This document shows, one piece after another, positions 1 to 6,571 of a stretch of DNA of 6,571 nt. This DNA comes from a virus (lineage: Duplodnaviria > Heunggongvirae > Uroviricota > Caudoviricetes). The notes beneath the pieces are model-generated. The model saw only the letters and a list, made by a program, of their open reading frames with translations. It was not told the origin of the DNA and made no database searches. Position 1 is the stretch's first letter, and every line of letters begins with the position of its first letter. The translations under genes were made by a program, and so were the position numbers. The stretch is taken from IMG/VR virus record IMGVR_UViG_3300012089_000069, positions 1-6,571 of that record; one strand, given 5' to 3'.

Positions 1-51
1 AATCGCTTCCGGCAACTCGTGAGTAAAAAGATTCGGTATCAGAAGAGGTGA
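1..51 (+). CDS. 3' end of an upstream gene (partial; 5' end outside window), C-terminal peptide NRFRQLVSKKIRYQKR
   Basis: Frame 1 is open from position 1 to TGA at 49-51. The stop lies 2 nt before the ATG at 54 of the next gene, a coupling-type arrangement. Too short to assign a product. Confidence 0.3.
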   Translation, partial: NRFRQLVSKKIRYQKR

Positions 52-53
52 GT

Positions 54-1124
54 ATGGCTAACGCCTGGCTCAGATTATGGCATGACATGCCAAATGACCC
101 TAAGTGGCGAACAATTGCCAGGGTGTCAGGGCAGCCAATTGCAACAGTGATGGCAGTGTATATCCACCTCCTGGTGAGCGCGTCACGAAATGTCACGCGA
201 GGTCACATTGATGTCACGACAGAAGATTTGGCAAGTGCGCTCGACGTGACAGAAGAGGTAATTGATTCAATTTTGCAGACGATGCAGGGGCGGGTACTTG
301 ATGGTGATTTAATCACTGGATGGGAAAAACGCCAGGTGCTTAAAGAGGACAACGGCAATATTTCGCAAACCGCAAAATCTCCTGCAGAGCGCAAGAGGGC
401 GCAGCGAGAGAGGGAAAGAAAGCGGGAACAAAATGGCGATTGTCACGGCGCGTCACGAAATGTCACGCACATGTCACGACGAGTCACGACAGATAAAGAT
501 ACAGATAAAGATACAGATCAAGAAGATCAAAACACTATGGTCCATGGCGTAAAAAACGCCACGGACCAGGCAGGGGATGTTCAGACCGTCACTCCTGGCC
601 AGCCCGCAGGCACGACACCGGAAGCCGATTCAGCGTATGTGCTGAAAGCCGATTCGGGCGCTGTGCAGCAGGTGATGACCGCAAGGCAGGAGCAATCACA
701 CCAACTTCAGCAGCCTGAAGCCGATTCCGCCATTCAGCGGGAAGCCGATCGGGTAGTCCCGGAAAACACCGGGCAGCCTGTGGGACGAGTGGATTATCCT
801 GATGTGTTCGAACAGGTCTGGCGGGAATACCCGTTGCGTGCCGGGGCAAACCCGAAGAAATCCGCTTTCAGTGCCTGGAAAGCCAGATTACGCGAGGGGG
901 TGCCACCAGAGGCCATGCTGGATGGTGTGAGGCGTTACGCAAGATACCTGGCGGCTACCGGGAAAACGGGAACGGAATTTGTTCAGCGAGCGACGACGTT
1001 TTTTGGACCGGACCGGAATTTTGAAAACCCCTGGCTGCTCCCGGTAAGCGGCACGAACAACCAGCGTTGTGTGAATCATATTTCTGAACCGGATACCGAA
1101 ATTCCACCGGGCTTCAGGGGATAA
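54..1124 (+). CDS. Phage replication initiator / replisome-organizer-type protein with intragenic origin iterons
   Basis: Long ORF; ATG at 54 is preceded by AGAGGTG (the track's GTG at 48 is less likely). The N-terminus (MANAWLRLWHDMPNDPKWRTIA...) resembles phage replisome-organizer N-terminal domains. The C-terminal region (FEQVWREYPLRAGANPKKSAFSAWKARL...FENPW) resembles DnaD-like C-terminal domains of phage initiators. Two iteron clusters sit inside the ORF and translate to the repeated peptide ASRNVT(R/H)...VTT, as with lambda ori inside gene O. Family assignment is from memory, not a search. Confidence 0.7.
   Translation: MANAWLRLWHDMPNDPKWRTIARVSGQPIATVMAVYIHLLVSASRNVTRGHIDVTTEDLASALDVTEEVIDSILQTMQGRVLDGDLITGWEKRQVLKEDNGNISQTAKSPAERKRAQRERERKREQNGDCHGASRNVTHMSRRVTTDKDTDKDTDQEDQNTMVHGVKNATDQAGDVQTVTPGQPAGTTPEADSAYVLKADSGAVQQVMTARQEQSHQLQQPEADSAIQREADRVVPENTGQPVGRVDYPDVFEQVWREYPLRAGANPKKSAFSAWKARLREGVPPEAMLDGVRRYARYLAATGKTGTEFVQRATTFFGPDRNFENPWLLPVSGTNNQRCVNHISEPDTEIPPGFRG
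178..250. repeat. Iteron cluster 1: GTCACG/GTCACA copies starting at 182, 192, 202 and 213, plus an inverted copy CGTGAC at 245-250
   Basis: Direct repeats at 10-11 bp (one helical turn) spacing, read directly from the sequence. The 21-mer GCGCGTCACGAAATGTCACGC at 178-198 recurs exactly at 448-468. Confidence 0.65.
442..488. repeat. Iteron cluster 2: five GTCACG copies starting at 442, 452, 462, 473 and 483 (probable ori core)
   Basis: Five direct hexamer repeats with 10/10/11/10 bp phasing inside the replication gene, immediately followed by an AT-rich tandem repeat. Confidence 0.7.
491..530. repeat. AT-rich tandem repeat (AGATAAAGATAC x2, then AGATCAAGAAGATCAA); candidate DNA-unwinding element next to the iterons
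   Basis: Exact 12-bp tandem duplication at 491-502 and 503-514, then a related A-rich stretch. It translates to the low-complexity linker DKDTDKDTDQEDQ. Confidence 0.5.
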
Positions 1125-1164
1125 GTGTTGATTTCTGGTCATGAGGTAATTTTCAGGAGGACTT

Positions 1165-1587
1165 GTGGCAAAAGTTTTTACACAAGAAGAGCGAGAAAAA
1201 ATTAAAGGGCAGGTTGTTGAACTCGTACGCCAGAGTGGGCGTGAGACGTTACGGCAACTGGAAGTCAAGACAGGTGCGACAAGATATCTGATGAGCGTTC
1301 TCGCAAGAGAGCTGGTTGCCAGTGGCGATGTATACAACTCTGGTTACGGGTTATTCCCGTCTGAACAGGCGCGTAAGGACTGGCAAAATGCCCGTAAAAA
1401 GCTCTCAAGGGCAAAGCCGAAGAAAACATCTGCGGTTGATCCGGACCTTATCTGGTCATTACCAGATGGCGAAATACGCCGCTACGACAGGCGTCTGAAC
1501 ATAATCTGTCTCGAGTGCCGGAAGAGCGAAGTTATGCAGCGCGTACTGGCGTTTTATCAGGGGAATTTTGAGGAGGTGGTGCGGTGA
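1165..1587 (+). CDS. Hypothetical small phage protein (nin-region-like), 140 aa
   Basis: ORF with GTG start at 1165 preceded by AGGAGG (1155-1160). Its TGA stop overlaps the GTG of the next gene (GTGA). No motif recognised. Confidence 0.55.
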   Translation: MAKVFTQEEREKIKGQVVELVRQSGRETLRQLEVKTGATRYLMSVLARELVASGDVYNSGYGLFPSEQARKDWQNARKKLSRAKPKKTSAVDPDLIWSLPDGEIRRYDRRLNIICLECRKSEVMQRVLAFYQGNFEEVVR

Positions 1588-1838
1588 GTGAATCAAAATG
1601 CCAGGTTAATGGCAACAAGATAGAACCATGTGCAGCACTGGCAAAGTCCCTTGAGCATGATGCTGAATACACGATGCGAAAAGGTCTGCTGATATACAAA
1701 ATCTGGAATGAGAGTTTAACTCGCGGTCCTAATTTTGTGATGTTGCGTTCCGGTGAATTTTCTAAATTACCAGTTCGGGTTTCATTTTGTCCGTTCTGTG
1801 GTGAAAGTCTGAAAACGTGGGAGAACAGAAATGAATGA
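1584..1838 (+). CDS. Hypothetical small protein with four Cys (C6, C16, CPFC at 69-72), possible zinc-ribbon
   Basis: GTG start at 1584 overlaps the upstream stop (GTGA); AGGAGG at 1571-1576. Its stop overlaps the next start (ATGAATGA). Confidence 0.55.
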   Translation: MSESKCQVNGNKIEPCAALAKSLEHDAEYTMRKGLLIYKIWNESLTRGPNFVMLRSGEFSKLPVRVSFCPFCGESLKTWENRNE

Positions 1839-2142
1839 AATCAAAGAAATACCAGTAGTACGTGATGAATATGGCTGCTGGACGCATCCTGAATATGAAA
1901 AATTCTGTGACGGTCGGGAATATATTTCAACGGAAGAGTTTAACGCCTGGATGGAGGAAAATAATCTTCAATACGTCCTCTGCTTCAGAGATGAAGGATG
2001 TGCTGACCTTGATGCGTGTGATGCTGATATTTCTGCATGGGAACCGGAACGACCAGAGGGCAATGGATGGTTTATTGGTTCAATACATGACACCGAAGAT
2101 GGCCCGGTTTGTGTATGGCTGAGAAATAAGGCCGAAGCATAA
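1831..2142 (+). CDS. Hypothetical acidic Cys-containing small phage protein, 103 aa
   Basis: ATG at 1831 overlaps the upstream stop by 8 nt. The ORF ends where the AT-rich region begins. No motif recognised. Confidence 0.55.
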   Translation: MNEIKEIPVVRDEYGCWTHPEYEKFCDGREYISTEEFNAWMEENNLQYVLCFRDEGCADLDACDADISAWEPERPEGNGWFIGSIHDTEDGPVCVWLRNKAEA

Positions 2143-2247
2143 AGGCTATAAACCGACTAACAACTAAATACTGAAGATTTAAATCAGAAACGATTTTTAT
2201 TAAATCCTTAACCGGAGGGATTCCTGCACCCTCAAATCATCAGGAGG

Positions 2248-2263
2248 CCGCCCGAAAGGGCGG
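2248..2263 (+). promoter_or_regulatory. GC-rich stem-loop (CCGCCC-GAAA-GGGCGG) immediately upstream of the RBS of the Q-like gene
   Basis: Perfect 6-bp GC stem with a GNRA-type loop. No U-tract follows, so it is not a canonical intrinsic terminator. GGAG at 2265-2268 and ATG at 2275 follow directly. Confidence 0.3.
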
Positions 2264-2274
2264 TGGAGATAATA

Positions 2275-2796
2275 ATGGGAATAACTAAAGAACGATTGTT
2301 GGAAATAGCAAACCTTAGTGATTGGGCATTAAGTGATGAGAGAATTGTTTCTCCTCATGCTTATGAGTCAGTTACAAGTATAGAAATAACAACAATGGCT
2401 AGAATGCTGCTTGGTTATTTCAAAATAGAAAATAAAAAACAGATGGATAGTAATGTTGATATATGTGAGATTTTAGACGATTGGGGGGCTTGGGTTGTGG
2501 CTGGTAATAGTTCTATTGATTGGCAGGAAATAGCTGATAAATATAAAAATGTTGTTCCTCATGGTAAAAAATCACGTCGTCAGTGCAGCAATGATGAAGG
2601 GCGAATTATTGACATTAGTATCCTTATGTTAGAAAGATATAAGCAACAAGAATATGAGTTAATTGTTGCTCATTTCGTGATTGGTTTATCTCTTCGTGCT
2701 ATTGCAAAGCAACAAGGATGTTCAGATGGAACAATTCGTAAAAGATTGCAAAAAGCCTTAGGTTTTTTGACTGGATATATAGCAATTACCAGTTAA
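2275..2796 (+). CDS. Q-family late-gene antiterminator-like protein (phage 21/82-type Q; QuuD-like) with sigma-70 region-4-like C-terminal HTH
   Basis: ATG at 2275 with GGAG 6 nt upstream. The protein has a WGAW motif, SRRQCSNDEG, and a C-terminal GLSLRAIAKQQGCSDGTIRKRLQKALGFL. These match my recollection of E. coli DLP12 QuuD (ERWGAW ... SRPQCCDDD ... CSDGYIGKRLQKAEG). An alternative internal start at 2443 (MDSNVDICEILDDWGAW) would give a QuuD-length protein. The gene is AT-rich compared with the flanking phage genes. Confidence 0.65.
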   Translation: MGITKERLLEIANLSDWALSDERIVSPHAYESVTSIEITTMARMLLGYFKIENKKQMDSNVDICEILDDWGAWVVAGNSSIDWQEIADKYKNVVPHGKKSRRQCSNDEGRIIDISILMLERYKQQEYELIVAHFVIGLSLRAIAKQQGCSDGTIRKRLQKALGFLTGYIAITS

Positions 2797-3434
2797 GAGT
2801 CAGCGGTTTTTTTACCAGTGTAATGGTATAAGGATACTCCCATGTGTCTTACATGATATGGAAGCGCTGTTGCTGGATGCTTTGTGATACTCTTAAAGCG
2901 GAGGGGAGAGCCTTCCGCTTCAATTTCTGCGTCCGAAACGGTCGTAGAGAAAAATTCTTTCCATTCATTGAATTTTACTGCTGATTTGTCAGACTTTATA
3001 TAAATTAGAATTCCTCCATGATCGTCACGTGACGTACCCGTGCCGTAACGTTCGGTTAGCTGAATCCAGCCATTATGAATAGATTTGGGGCCTCTCCATA
3101 ATTTTGCTTCACCGATCCATTCGAATTTTCCGAATTGATGTTTAACTAATAAATCAACGTGACCGCCATGTTGAGTATCATGTTCAACATCATAAAACCT
3201 ACCTTTCAGGAAATTTTTGATCGACGCTGTTAGCTCGTCCTCTCCCCACTTAGCATCTTGATAGAAGTGTTTGTCATTTTCTAAATTCTGAATAGCGTCG
3301 TCTAAATCTTCATAGAGTTGCTTTACAAAAATATTTTTGTCTGCAGCTAATTTTCTTTGAACCATTCCCCTAAATTCAGGATCCATTCTAATTAATGATT
3401 GAAGGTCTGCAGTACAGATGTTTACATCACTCAT
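2793..3434 (-). CDS. Third gene of the minus-strand operon: putative PD-(D/E)xK / Mrr-like restriction-endonuclease-fold nuclease, 213 aa
   Basis: Likely start is the ATG at 3434-3432 (MSDVNIC...), which overlaps the upstream stop as ATGAGTGA. The track's longer N-terminus has no RBS and lies inside the upstream gene. Motif GGHVDLLV-x10-EWIGEAK (D94, E109, K111) fits D...(D/E)xK. The stop codon shares 2 nt with the stop of the convergent Q-like gene. Confidence 0.6.
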   Translation of the reverse strand: MSDVNICTADLQSLIRMDPEFRGMVQRKLAADKNIFVKQLYEDLDDAIQNLENDKHFYQDAKWGEDELTASIKNFLKGRFYDVEHDTQHGGHVDLLVKHQFGKFEWIGEAKLWRGPKSIHNGWIQLTERYGTGTSRDDHGGILIYIKSDKSAVKFNEWKEFFSTTVSDAEIEAEGSPLRFKSITKHPATALPYHVRHMGVSLYHYTGKKTADS

Positions 3435-3855
3435 GCAGACTCTCCAAAAGACTCGAAGGAGTAAAGTATGGATAAAGATACTGGCTAAAATTATCAACCA
3501 ATTCGCCAGTTTCTGGATGGTAAAAACTTCCTGTGTCTAAAGCATAGGAAATAAGATCATCTTCAACTGGTATTGGTTCTTCCGTTAAATTATCAATGTA
3601 TTGAAAATGCATATCCAATAGATGTGCTTTATAGCTAGATAAATAATCAGTTGCTTTTATTAGCAGGATATAGTCATCTTTCGTATCAGTTAGATAGGTT
3701 AAACCATTGATAAGGGTTTTGTATGTAAAGTGATTGATATTTTTAGCATCTTTACTAACCAGAAAAAGAAAAAGATCACGACACACACTGCGAACAGGAT
3801 CATTAAAATCCTGCTCTATTTGCGTGATAATGTCGTGATATATACTCTTTTTCAT
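3427..3855 (-). CDS. Second gene of the minus-strand operon: small acidic protein of unknown function, 142 aa
   Basis: ATG at 3855-3853 overlaps the stop of the upstream gene (ATGA). The protein is D/E-rich with no recognisable motif. AT-rich codon usage matches its neighbours. Confidence 0.6.
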   Translation of the reverse strand: MKKSIYHDIITQIEQDFNDPVRSVCRDLFLFLVSKDAKNINHFTYKTLINGLTYLTDTKDDYILLIKATDYLSSYKAHLLDMHFQYIDNLTEEPIPVEDDLISYALDTGSFYHPETGELVDNFSQYLYPYFTPSSLLESLHE

Positions 3856-4943
3856 TTATGGCCTGATGATCTCGCTCTTCTTTTCTCTTCACAGGACTTA
3901 ACAGAATCCAATATTTTTTCAACAATAAATATAATCGAATCAATGTTGTTACAGTTCTTCGCAATTGCTTCATGCAACCTAATTCTAGGATTATCAAGCA
4001 TTGTCCTTTTTCCTGGTAATATTAACTCTACTGATAAAATATGTGAAGAACTTTGTGGTAAATCCCAAATTTTTCCCAACTTAAACTTTGTCAATATTGG
4101 GCTTGCGGACTCTCCACTATGATGGTAAACATCTTGACGCAAACACTTTTGACTTGGTTTGAGTTTTAAAGAACTTGTATTGCCATCTGAGGTGATAAAA
4201 GATACATGAGAAATTCTGCCATCTACTTTTTCGTAAAGATCTTGTATTGAACCAAATAATTCAAGAGGATTGTTTAAAATAACGCCAGCTTCTTTTTTTA
4301 TAAATTTAGCCACAAGGTATTGTTGAGGCTGTGATTCACTTCTTGGAAGGATAGATAAATCAATCGTAAGAATTAATATTTTTTCTGCAGGCATTAGCAT
4401 GATGGTATTAAAGCATTGCGTGACTTGGCGTGTTTTGCATTTTATTTCTCCACCATTAGCACGTAATTCCATACCCGCATCGCTAAGATGTGTTGGGTCA
4501 AGCTCTATCACTTCAGTGTAATACGCTTTGGATAAAAAAACAGCAGTGTCAATTTGTTTATCACGAATGATATCTTGACGTAGTTCAGCAAAATGCAGCT
4601 CAGTATCAGCAACTAACAGCTCCTCTCTGGATAAAGGAGTTGGGTATTTTTCTGAGAAGGGGCTATTGTCCTTTTTCTGATTTGTGAAAATTGTTTGTAA
4701 TTTTGCTACGTCTTCATCGGTGATTCTATAAATAGAAAGTAATCGATTCCCGCTAAAAATTAAACCTTTCCAGAAATCGTCGATTCTGTCTTTTAGGTCG
4801 GGATTATGCTGAACTACACTATTTACACGTTCAATAAAAAGGGGTAATCCTTGGGCCGTTACACCCAGTGATGAACCAAGAAGCTTACGGGTGTTGCGCC
4901 AGCCAAAGCGTGAATTGATGTTTTTTACTGTTTGCTCAAGCAT
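3852..4943 (-). CDS. :: First gene of the minus-strand operon: 363-aa protein of unknown function, a candidate sensor or specificity component
   Basis: Long ORF. The probable start is ATG at 4943-4941 with AAGGAA 6 nt upstream; the track start at 4949 is a GTG two codons earlier. No Walker A, methyltransferase or obvious HEPN/TIR motif seen. The C-terminus is basic (KRRARSSGHK). Confidence 0.6.
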   Translation of the reverse strand: MLEQTVKNINSRFGWRNTRKLLGSSLGVTAQGLPLFIERVNSVVQHNPDLKDRIDDFWKGLIFSGNRLLSIYRITDEDVAKLQTIFTNQKKDNSPFSEKYPTPLSREELLVADTELHFAELRQDIIRDKQIDTAVFLSKAYYTEVIELDPTHLSDAGMELRANGGEIKCKTRQVTQCFNTIMLMPAEKILILTIDLSILPRSESQPQQYLVAKFIKKEAGVILNNPLELFGSIQDLYEKVDGRISHVSFITSDGNTSSLKLKPSQKCLRQDVYHHSGESASPILTKFKLGKIWDLPQSSSHILSVELILPGKRTMLDNPRIRLHEAIAKNCNNIDSIIFIVEKILDSVKSCEEKRRARSSGHK

Positions 4944-4949
4944 TAACAC

Positions 4950-5100
4950 TTCCTTAATTTTCCCTTAACAATTTAGGGTGCTAAACTTTTTTGCGCAGTT
5001 TACATAAAAAAATAGTGCGTACGCAAAAACTATCTAACATGATGAGCTTTAACCGGGAAATTTGTATATGTTGTGAGCATAAAGTTGGCTGAGAAATCTA
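4950..5100 (-). promoter_or_regulatory. Probable promoter/operator region of the three-gene operon, containing the perfect palindrome TGCGTACGCA (5016-5025)
   Basis: AT-rich non-coding DNA upstream of the first operon gene. Only weak sigma-70-like hexamers can be picked out by eye. The 10-bp palindrome is a candidate operator. Confidence 0.3.
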
Positions 5101-5289
5101 AAACGGGTAGAATGACTGCGGGTGCTTGAGGCTATCTGTCTCAGGCATGAACACCAAAAGGCAGATAGAGAAAAGCCCCAGTTAACATTACGCGTCCGGC
5201 AAGACGCTTAACATTAATCTGAGGCCATATCTATGCTCTACACACGTAGGTTAGCCTCTTACGTGCCGAAAGGCAAGGAGAAGCAGGCT

Positions 5290-5445
5290 ATGAAGCAGCA
5301 AAAGGCGATGCTAATCGCCCTGATCGTCATCTGTTTAACCGTCATAGTGACGGCACTGGTAACGAGGAAAGACCTCTGCGAGGTACGAATCCGAACCGGC
5401 CAGACGGAGGTCGCTGTCTTCACAGCTTACGAACCTGAGGAGTAA
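5290..5445 (+). CDS. hokD: Hok/Gef-family type I toxin (small membrane host-killing peptide), 51 aa
   Basis: Peptide MKQQKAMLIALIVICLTVIVTALVTRKDLCEVRIRTGQTEVAVFTAYEPEE carries the Hok signature (CLT...LVTRKDLCE...EVAVFTAYE). As I recall it, this matches E. coli HokD/RelF. AAGGAG at 5274-5279. The track's upstream in-frame ATG at 5233 is unlikely to be the true start. Confidence 0.85.
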   Translation: MKQQKAMLIALIVICLTVIVTALVTRKDLCEVRIRTGQTEVAVFTAYEPEE

Positions 5446-5513
5446 GAGACCAGGCGGGGGAGAATCCCTCGCCACCTCTGATGTGTCAGGCATCCTCAAC
5501 GCACCCGCACTTA

Positions 5514-5539
5514 ACCCGCTTCGGCGGGTTTTGTTTTTT
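5514..5539 (+). terminator. Rho-independent terminator downstream of hok (ACCCGC-TTCG-GCGGGT followed by TTTTGTTTTTT)
   Basis: Perfect 6-bp GC-rich stem with a TTCG loop and an 11-nt T-rich tract, read directly from the sequence. Confidence 0.75.
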
Positions 5540-5611
5540 CCTGGCATTCTGGTTTACAATTCGCACGCCAGCCTGAACAACTGGCACCTGCTGCGCCAGC
5601 AGAGACAACCG

Positions 5612-5884
5612 ATGGCGCACAAAACCAAATTTCACAATTCTGATACCGCCCTTGCCATCCGGCATGGGCGGCGTTCACACGCATTTAAAACCGACTGGTA
5701 CCAACACCCACCATGTACTGAAGAACAGGCCGAATGGCTAATTCATAACTACCGCAGACGCGGATACGAGATTAAGAAAGCCCTCAGCCTCGATTATCGT
5801 CACTGGATAATCTTCGTCAGGCTCCCTTATTCCGAACGCCCACCGCGTCCGTCCCGCACATTCCAGCAACGCATCTGGAGGTAA
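5612..5884 (+). CDS. Small basic prophage protein, possibly Rem-like (by synteny with the hokD-rem-ydfU order in E. coli Qin prophage), 90 aa
   Basis: ATG at 5612 is more plausible than the track's GTG at 5483, which would overlap the hok terminator. Its stop is 1 nt before the next gene's GTG. Identity is inferred from gene order only. Confidence 0.5.
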   Translation: MAHKTKFHNSDTALAIRHGRRSHAFKTDWYQHPPCTEEQAEWLIHNYRRRGYEIKKALSLDYRHWIIFVRLPYSERPPRPSRTFQQRIWR

Positions 5885-5885
5885 C

Positions 5886-6571
5886 GTGCGGGTATTACTT
5901 CGACCTGTTCCGGTACCGGAACTTGGGCTGGTGGTGCTAAAACCGGGCCGTGAATCCATGCAGGTATTTCATAATCCTCGAGTTCTGGTGGAGCCGGAAC
6001 CGAAAAGCATGCGCGGTCTGCCGTCCGGAGTCGTTCCTGCCGTTCGCCAGCCATTGGCGGAGGATAAATCATTACTGCCATTTTTCAGCGATGAGCGGGT
6101 GATTCGTGCTGCTGGTGGTGCTGGTGCACTGTCTGACTGGCTGTTACGCCACATTAAATCCTGCCAGTGGCCTCATGGTGACTACCATCACAGCGAAACC
6201 GTCATACATCGTTACGGTACCGGTGCAATGGTGTTGTGTTGGCACTGCGACAACCAGCTGCGTGACCAGACTTCCGAATCACTCGGGCAGCTTGCTCACC
6301 AAAATTTGTCAGCATGGATGATTGACGTCATACGCCATGCAATGAATGGCACGCAGGAGCGGGAATTATCGCTGGCTGAATTATCCTGGTGGGCAACCAT
6401 AAATAACGTAGCGGACGCACTACCGGAGACGGTATTACGTCGTTCTCTGGGGTTACGTGCGGAAAAAATCCGCTCGGTGTACCGCGAAAGCGACATCATA
6501 CCGGGAGAGCAGACAGCCACCAGCATCCTGAAACAGCGCACAAAAAATCTTGCGCCGCTGCCTCACGCCCA
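5886..6571 (+). CDS. Cys/His-rich prophage protein, YdfU/DUF968-like (partial; 3' end outside window)
   Basis: Frame is open from GTG at 5886 to the window end (228 codons, no stop). Contains a CQWPHGDYHHSETVIHRYGTGAMVLCWHCDN metal-binding-like cluster. Synteny after hok matches Qin prophage. Not in the ORF track because it has no stop inside the window. Confidence 0.6.
   Translation, partial: MRVLLRPVPVPELGLVVLKPGRESMQVFHNPRVLVEPEPKSMRGLPSGVVPAVRQPLAEDKSLLPFFSDERVIRAAGGAGALSDWLLRHIKSCQWPHGDYHHSETVIHRYGTGAMVLCWHCDNQLRDQTSESLGQLAHQNLSAWMIDVIRHAMNGTQERELSLAELSWWATINNVADALPETVLRRSLGLRAEKIRSVYRESDIIPGEQTATSILKQRTKNLAPLPHA

Follow-up and report, generated by a model that had tools for sequence, protein, structure and literature searches.

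The stretch of Caudoviricetes DNA analyzed here (IMG/VR record IMGVR_UViG_3300012089_000069, positions 1 to 6,571; hereafter the window, meaning all 6,571 nucleotides (nt)) encodes on its plus strand, at 2275..2796, a 173-amino-acid (aa) homologue of the Q21/933W-family antiterminators, which we call Q-long. The gene is intact and selectively maintained, stands at the left end of an accessory module and is strictly coupled to a 12-bp motif, GCGTACGCAAAA, that lies beyond three convergent "cargo" genes. We suggest that Q-long would bind this motif in trans and that rightward transcription would thereby be restarted on the far side of the cargo; we put the probability of this reading, taken as a whole, at about one half.

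The open reading frame (ORF) of Q-long begins at ATG 2275, with a GGAG Shine-Dalgarno sequence 7 nt upstream and an in-frame GTG at 2263, and ends at TAA 2794-2796. G+C content is 0.32-0.42 over ~2250-5100, compared with 0.50-0.60 in the flanking DNA. The convergent ORF 2793..3497, on the minus strand, has its stop at 2793-2795 (TTA, read as TAA), and the Q-long stop shares two bases (2794-2795) with it. A reading of the sequence alone (hereafter the original prediction) had described a gene of this extent inside an AT-rich block, with a stop overlapping that of a convergent gene and with hok and YdfU-like genes downstream. The ORF and the G+C profile agree with this description, and the module is indeed followed on its 3′ side by hokD/sok (Rfam sok 5120-5295; Pfam HOK_GEF) and a DUF968/YdfU-like gene. 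The tail-to-tail abutment is not peculiar to the window; with spacers of -4 to +39 nt, it is the rule among related Q loci.

Q-long, its relatives and its module

Q-long belongs to the family of PF06530 (Phage_antitermQ), which is the Q21/Q933W family (bioRxiv 10.1101/651190; Yin, Kaelber and Ebright). The profile matches aa 62-171 along positions 3-112 of 118 (E=3e-31; 108.2 bits against a cutoff of 26), and phrog_79 ('anti-termination protein Q-like') matches with E=1e-33. The best relative in the PDB is the Q protein of phage 21 (Q21; 6P18, 6JNX; E=5e-4), in an alignment that spans the WGAW helix and the first helix of the helix-turn-helix (HTH). The gene had originally been called a Q-family antiterminator with 21/82-type hallmarks. 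A hidden Markov model search against Q families, as was then proposed, gives the significant PF06530 match above, so that the family call and its phage 21 half are upheld, while the protein is not of the Q82 family. The assignment is routine, in that NCBI has already named the protein in 97%-identical prophages: the ompW prophage of Escherichia coli E2348/69 is 97% identical to the window over 1062-6571, and its copy is named 'antiterminator Q family protein' (WP_000513135.1) by the NCBI Prokaryotic Genome Annotation Pipeline (PGAP).

The Q core (2458..2793, plus strand) comprises the WGAW helix (WGAW at aa 70-73), a loop-helix-loop matching the exit-channel ring of Q21 and an HTH resembling sigma region 4, and the family-invariant residues are retained. 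Taking the roles of Q21 residues from PMC6606751, W70-G-A-W73-V74 of Q-long aligns with W23-V27 of Q21, and K89 with K42, in an alignment that takes in Q21 W26/V27 and S93-H95. On this comparison, Q-long appears to have both the H1 'WGAW(V)' helix and the H2 ring segment that match the RNA polymerase-contacting parts of Q21. With respect to the DNA-contact positions of Q21 (S93, K94, H95; A124, T125, R127, R128), S139-L-R141 of Q-long aligns with S93-K-H95, and G152-T-I-R-K156 is the likely equivalent of A124-R128, though left unaligned by phmmer; the stretch CSDGTIRKRLQKA occupies aa 149-161. The two proteins belong to one family, and their WGAW helix, ring loop-helix-loop and sigma-region-4-like HTH can be aligned (6P18, 6P1A, 6JNX; PMC6606751; bioRxiv 10.1101/651190). 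Q21 differs in being ~25% identical to Q-long over the aligned part, in having 162 aa and no 60-aa N-terminal extension, in recognizing two TGAGCA direct repeats, and in standing directly before its own pR′ and late genes.

The N-terminal extension (aa 1-61; 2275..2457, plus strand) is absent from late-gene Q proteins and matches phrog_3323 (E=6e-15). The C-terminal 110 residues of Q-long are 55-62% identical to the 113-120-aa Qs of Stx1a phages, mEp460 and Klebsiella phages, but its first 61 residues are without counterpart in these short-form Qs of the phage collection. A search of 5.8 billion proteins sets apart a clade of long forms (170-185 aa) from E. coli and Salmonella with full-length identities of 63-96%; the short forms are at most 62% identical to Q-long. 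When the extension was used in a HMMER search of 1.84 billion representative proteins, the hits were the long-form clade and one unrelated 193-aa protein only. The long form is carried by 68 of 5426 complete E. coli genomes. As candidate sources of the extension, the small ORF preceding Q in the Stx1a phage Stx1_499 and an O157 gene having the same 5′ junction were both rejected because neither resembles it.

Selection acts on the whole gene. Among nine long-form genes, the ratio of nonsynonymous to synonymous substitution rates (dN/dS) is 0.29 in the extension, 0.32 in the WGAW helix, 0.26 in the ring-equivalent segment (81% identical among long forms), 0.21 in H3-H4 and 0.17 in the HTH. The low values in the ring and WGAW segments imply that the parts for RNA polymerase engagement are not decaying, and the extension itself appears to be translated and constrained. 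Alternative starts at 2275 and 2443, the latter giving a QuuD-length form, had also been proposed. Both ATGs exist, but in place of ATG 2443, L021 and L025 have GTA and L004 has GTG, and the 60 codons 5′ of it are under purifying selection (dN/dS 0.25-0.42). The internal start was therefore rejected as a conserved feature, and the data do not support the short form as a conserved product. The 5′ half of Q-long shows much lower synonymous divergence. In loci L021-L023 (7001-9675), the cassette is 99.6-100% identical to that of the window and Q-long 88% identical, with the differences concentrated in the 5′ half; in L021, a near-identical 3′ half and cassette next to a diverged 5′ half indicate recombination breakpoints inside the Q-long gene.

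The module extends over ~2274..5106 and is low in G+C. Its boundaries come from the Q-less sister prophages L032-L034, in which homology to the window ends at 2264-2273 and restarts at 5107. Because these prophages are without both Q-long and the motif, Q-long, cargo and motif form one accessory module. The prophage is of a Rac-like E. coli type with the module in the early-right (nin) region, and in every carrier examined Q-long lies in this region, after replication, DUF977 and nin-type genes. In sister prophages with the module, the gene order 3′ of the motif is hokD, DUF968, RusA and then another Q, a separate late Q just before the lysis genes. This late Q is of the Q82 type (PF06323) in E2348/69, L016, L017 and L120, of the Q-lambda type (PF03589) in L118, and of the DUF1133 type in Salmonella loci, L116 and L117. 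The window itself ends inside DUF968, and its late Q is known from the sister prophages; on their evidence Q-long is probably a second Q, as the original prediction had thought possible. The long-form copy indicates that the early region has acquired a duplicate of a late-gene antiterminator, to which a new N-terminal domain was added. Two features of a Q-dependent late cassette are absent here: the motif is not adjacent to the Q gene, and late (lysis or structural) genes do not directly follow the motif.

The 12-bp motif and two predicted promoters

The predicted Q-binding element GCGTACGCAAAA (5017..5028, plus strand) occurs once in the window, 2220 nt after the Q-long stop. Three other loci likewise have a Q of this subfamily, then convergent genes, then this 12-mer. 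All of the long-form loci that reach far enough (33/33) have a single plus-strand copy of the 12-mer 3′ of Q; two loci without it end within 1.4 kb and were left out of this count. These loci contain five unrelated cargo types, and their flanks are otherwise unalignable. Among short-form loci in IMG/VR, the exact 12-mer lies downstream of Q in 75 of 80, and the other five are truncated, giving 75/75 of the sufficiently long ones. From the Q stop to the motif, the short-form loci span 21 nt (the 'empty' sites L057-L059) to 2649 nt, in ~25 discrete classes, and displacement by 630-2649 nt is common. Long and short forms have in common the HTH signature SLR...C(S/A)DG.(I/V)RK. The Q of phage 933W has ETFM...CSDTCIGK instead, and in step with this difference its palindrome, ACGATCGT, also differs from the motif.

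The layout of Q, cargo and motif is the same in the complete phages mEp460 and Stx1_499. In Stx1_499, this Q is the only one in 49 kb; between it and the motif, tR′ and stx1AB lies a convergent three-gene cassette, of whose proteins two resemble the first two cargo proteins of the window (34% and 27% identity). With a sole Q and a cassette between it and the motif, this arrangement implies that action in trans across cargo is normal for this Q subfamily. It had originally been argued that the overlapping stops leave no room for a late promoter and qut site unless these are embedded in coding DNA. That argument fails, because a candidate site is found in the next intergenic region, at 5017-5040, 2.2 kb downstream; the qut site would be displaced past the cargo, not absent.

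The region of the motif is homologous to pR′, and the motif itself would on this evidence be a pR′ element. In short-form loci, a TAnnnT hexamer stands exactly 7 nt 3′ of the 12-mer in 38/38 sequence classes, followed by a conserved leader (GTTAAGAGTGGTTAC...); 28 of the 38 also have an intrinsic terminator within the next 120 nt. Many Shiga toxin (Stx) phages, 933W among them, have a leader and terminator of 90-97% identity to these. In the 933W record (AF125520), the aligned segment is annotated as pR′ (-35 TTTACG, -10 TATCAT), qut and terminator; the 8-bp palindrome with its A-run (ACGATCGTAAAAA), located between -35 and -10, aligns with GCGTACGC and AAAA of the motif. For the Stx phages of Sakai, differential RNA sequencing placed the start of this type of pR′ 258 nt before the 3′ end of tR′ (PMC7547250). 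If the 933W start is placed by this published distance to the annotated second terminator, it falls 7 nt after TATCAT, with the palindrome at ~-31 to -19. The binding element of Q21 likewise lies between -35 and -10 (PMC6606751). The system of 933W (also Sakai Sp5) is thus of the same family and has an alignable pR′, but its Q is ~38% identical to Q-long with different HTH residues, its Q gene and promoter are adjacent, and its Q is the phage's sole late regulator.

In the window, the sequence 3′ of the motif (ACTATC-TAACAT-GATGAGC) is near to the short-form pR′ core of L091 (ACTATCA-TAACCT-GATAAGAG), and over 5017-5046 there is close similarity to the pR′ cores of both L091 and L098. The hexamer TAACAT (5035..5040, plus strand), 6 nt after the motif, is a candidate pR′-like -10; transcription is predicted to start near 5047, which would put the motif at ~-30 to -19. 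Together, the coupling and the 933W alignment point to the 12-mer as a candidate cognate Q-binding element between -35 and -10. Beyond this core, homology to short-form pR′ stops, and the hok promoter and then sok/hokD follow. The first strong intrinsic terminator 3′ of the motif is found after hokD (5513..5540, plus strand; stem AACCCGC-TTCG-GCGGGTT with a T-rich tail), ~480 nt downstream, compared with 258 nt for the mapped Stx leader (PMC7547250). As evidence, the rightward promoter context counts for less than the motif.

Taken as a group, the short-form systems (mEp460, Stx1_499, Klebsiella phages and ~600 IMG/VR contigs) resemble that of the window in their Q core, HTH signature and 12-mer, and in having AT-rich, mostly convergent cargo between Q and motif, which in Stx1_499 is homologous to that of the window. 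They differ in that their Q lacks the extension and is the sole Q of the phage, and in that the motif belongs to a full pR′-leader-tR′ unit with the late genes next. In the window, tR′ is missing instead, hokD comes next, and a second Q lies downstream in the sisters.

The motif also overlaps a predicted leftward promoter for the cargo (4997..5026, minus strand), giving a predicted divergent promoter region immediately 5′ of hokD. Read on the minus strand the motif is TTTTGCGTACGC, in which TTGCGT (5026->5021) would serve as -35, with an 18-nt spacer and TAAACT (5002->4997) as -10. Counting as -10-like any hexamer that has A2 and T6 and agrees with TATAAT at 4/6 positions or more, we find TTGCGT together with such a hexamer 16-18 nt off in 30 of 38 flank classes (shuffled sequences: mean 6.3, maximum 14), and this geometry recurs in 7/9 long-form classes. 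The cargo genes begin 20-60 nt beyond the leftward -10, and in the window an AAGGAA Shine-Dalgarno sequence precedes ATG 4943. Since the cargo -35 is inside the motif, a protein on the motif would cover it. Immediately before the motif, 26/29 short-form classes have C and 9/9 long-form classes have T; in the window this T is at 5016, and it completes the 10-bp palindrome TGCGTACGCA.

Possible functions of Q-long

A plausible sequence of events begins with prophage induction, when Q-long would be translated from the early-right transcript and would bind the motif at 5017-5028 in trans. It would then load on RNA polymerase starting at the rightward pR′-like promoter, and terminator-resistant transcription would proceed through the terminator after hokD in the direction of DUF968, RusA and the true late Q. 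In this way, the early operon would be re-started beyond a 2.2-kb convergent insert that would otherwise be polar. Bound Q-long would probably shut off the cargo as well, given the location of the cargo -35.

A more elaborate scheme, which we offer tentatively and hold to be rather unlikely in its entirety, is that Q-long, its site and the cargo promoter together let a lambdoid prophage accommodate a convergent defence cassette midway through its early operon. The cargo promoter would be active in the lysogen, and its transcripts would run antisense into Q-long, there being no terminator between the overlapping stops. On induction, Q-long on its site would silence the cargo and launch terminator-proof transcription that bridges the polar insert. 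An implication of such a scheme is that the gap between Q and pR′ in this Q subfamily would be a promoter-equipped landing pad for anti-phage cargo; at least 25 classes of cargo are seen there.

There are partial precedents for a role outside late-gene control. The N protein of phage lambda is a processive antiterminator that acts before the late-gene switch, although it is unrelated to Q-long and RNA-directed. A Q-like antiterminator in the immB region of the telomere phages N15 and PY54 is a precedent for non-late use (PMC4488713), and AlpA of Pseudomonas aeruginosa for a processive antiterminator on another regulon (PMC7969949); both belong to other protein families or contexts. None of these factors is described as bridging a convergent cargo island.

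Several observations weigh against a restart of transcription by Q-long. Q-less sister prophages evidently express their late Q without the module, and one of them, L032 (E. coli sequence type 866), has a convergent PD-Lambda-2-like gene at the same nin spot without Q-long or the motif, indicating that such a relay is not obligatory. The rightward promoter is eroded in long-form loci: an nAnnnT hexamer follows the motif by 5-6 nt in only 5/8 classes, these loci keep neither the CTAAC upstream of the motif nor the GTTAAGAGTGGTTAC initial transcribed region that short-form pR′ has, and the nearby tR′ is missing, with a terminator-like site within 300 nt in 1/8 classes. In the window, we found neither a convincing sigma-dependent pause element nor a clear -10-like element after 5047. 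Some copies of the gene (L028-L030 and protein P0122) look frameshifted. Finally, an AlphaFold2 model of Q-long from a 63-sequence alignment is poor (mean predicted local distance difference test score (pLDDT) 58.8, below 50 in the extension), and when this low-confidence model is used in Foldseek, the Q21 structures are the top two hits at a non-significant E of 0.35-0.5, so that no structural statement on the extension is possible.

Part of this evidence would fit a protein exapted as a plain DNA-binding regulator, which represses the cargo promoter in lytic growth and has lost antitermination. Such a regulator might, for example, protect the induced phage from damage by nuclease cargo or by convergent transcription, and the extension could dimerise for symmetric binding. 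Consistent with this are the cargo -35 inside the motif in most flank classes, the T that makes the motif a perfect palindrome in long-form loci, the degradation of rightward pR′ features in those loci while the 12-mer is invariant, and the association of Q-long with convergent cargo, Q-long being absent from three sampled sisters with only co-directional nin genes. We nevertheless consider a repressor-only role doubtful. The ring-equivalent segment and the WGAW helix, which DNA binding would not need, are constrained like the HTH, the window-type locus keeps a pR′-like -10 at the right place, and we know of no precedent for a Q protein as a simple repressor. Repression and antitermination are, moreover, not mutually exclusive.

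Alternatively, the cassette may have moved from a short-form Q-pR′ gap into the nin region, bringing along pieces of Q and pR′, and the gene would have no current role in this prophage. The layout shared with mEp460 and the Stx1a phages, the homologous cassette in both contexts, the breakpoints inside the Q-long gene, the few frameshifted copies and the low frequency of the module among E. coli genomes are all compatible with such hitch-hiking. It fits the origin of the module, but not the selection on gene and motif: purifying selection extends over the whole gene among E. coli and Salmonella copies of 63-96% identity, the gene has gained a conserved 60-aa extension, and the 12-mer, too short for a recombination arm, is invariant over five cargo classes with unalignable flanks. 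As an account of the module's present state we judge it quite unlikely. Highly improbable, in our view, is that Q-long is the prophage's own late-gene Q, whether main or orphan, or a misread extracytoplasmic function (ECF) sigma factor or LuxR-type regulator. Its relatives at 55-62% identity are late Qs, and its HTH does resemble sigma region 4, with scores of 25.1 bits for Sigma70_r4_2 over aa 128-163 (cutoff 25.7) and 34.3 bits for TIGR02937 over aa 118-165 (cutoff 42.9). Both matches, however, are below cutoff and confined to region 4, the profile searches gave no region 2 or GerE match in Q-long, and the Q model scores about four times higher; the original prediction had named a better match to an ECF sigma or LuxR-type regulator as grounds for abandoning it, and the Q match is the better one. 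The gene is also located in the early-right region, before hokD, DUF968 and RusA, and in the sisters the late Q is a different one, immediately ahead of the lysis genes. We favor an antiterminator that acts in trans on the displaced site.

Cargo genes and wider significance

The three cargo genes lie on the minus strand as a leftward operon. Cargo gene C (3852..4943; ~363 aa) is the first gene of the operon, and its PGAP start corresponds to 4943 in the window. It matches phrog_12777 (E=3e-147) and has no sequence match in the PDB. Cargo gene B (3427..3855; 142 aa) matches phrog_11490 (E=8e-61), with no match in Pfam, PADLOC or NCBIfam; neither B nor C has a domain recognizable in profile searches. 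Cargo gene A (2793..3434), whose stop overlaps that of Q-long, is restriction-endonuclease-like (PD-(D/E)xK). Its invariant residues include H92, D94, E109 and K111, and its AlphaFold2 model is confident (pLDDT 92.8); for this model the protein was started at residue 22 of the longest ORF (2793..3434), in line with the PHROG alignment. The start of gene A is uncertain, the choices being TTG 3497 (the longest ORF, 234 aa), ATG 3434 (213 aa; residue 22 of the longest ORF, from which the PHROG profile aligns) and the PGAP start at 3386 (197 aa); the family alignment supports the 213-aa form as the probable one. The convergent gene had been called a nuclease from the outset, and the restriction-endonuclease-like fold supports this at the level of fold.

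In short-form loci, the gaps between Q and motif (L035-L114; L002 3836-5385; L003 3842-6050) have 25-43% G+C, and their ORFs are mostly on the minus strand. The gap looks like a cargo or defence hotspot bounded by Q and GCGTACGCAAAA. An integron-like mode of insertion is not supported, as the window has no second copy of the motif (allowing up to 2 mismatches) beyond the minus-strand reading of the palindrome. The nin-region site is itself a general hotspot: L032 has there, at 3945-5580, an sce7726/cll-like gene paired with a 'beta family' gene that matches PD-Lambda-2_C (E=2e-41), and other sisters have only small co-directional nin genes at the same site.

Other observations concern the edges of the module. 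Its right edge, at 5107, splits the hok promoter, with the -10 (TAGAAT, 5108-5113) in the backbone and the -35 (TTGGCT, 5085-5090) supplied by the module. The hok -35 differs between cargo types, and hok expression may depend on which insert is present. At the left edge, a hairpin (GCCGCCC-GAAA-GGGCGGT, 2247-2262) with a 7-bp stem and a GNRA loop directly precedes the ribosome-binding site of Q-long. The hairpin is part of the conserved backbone: ~2600 of 5426 E. coli genomes contain the first 65 nt of the query. No T-run follows the stem, and the hairpin resembles a boxB-type nut hairpin, with CCCTCAAA 10 nt upstream. Further to the left, an 84-aa ORF (1584-1838; phrog_4030) is intact in the window, and the E2348/69 copy is annotated as a pseudogene with an internal stop.

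In the searchable literature, outside which many subscription papers lie, we found nothing on the motif, on prophages with two Qs, on a defence hotspot between Q and pR′, on the long-form clade, on the strict coupling of Q and GCGTACGCAAAA, or on a shared divergent promoter. The Q subfamily and its 12-bp site form a separable protein-site pair, which stays coupled across up to 2.6 kb of variable cargo. The hotspot in lambdoid phages is set by a simple sequence rule and could be mined for new defence systems; a three-gene cassette of the restriction-endonuclease-like type also sits between Q and stx1 in Stx1a phages. Finally, we note that if Q-long does act as a relay or as a silencer of the cargo, this would explain how prophages tolerate polar, convergent inserts in essential operons, and would show how defence cargo is turned off when the phage turns lytic.

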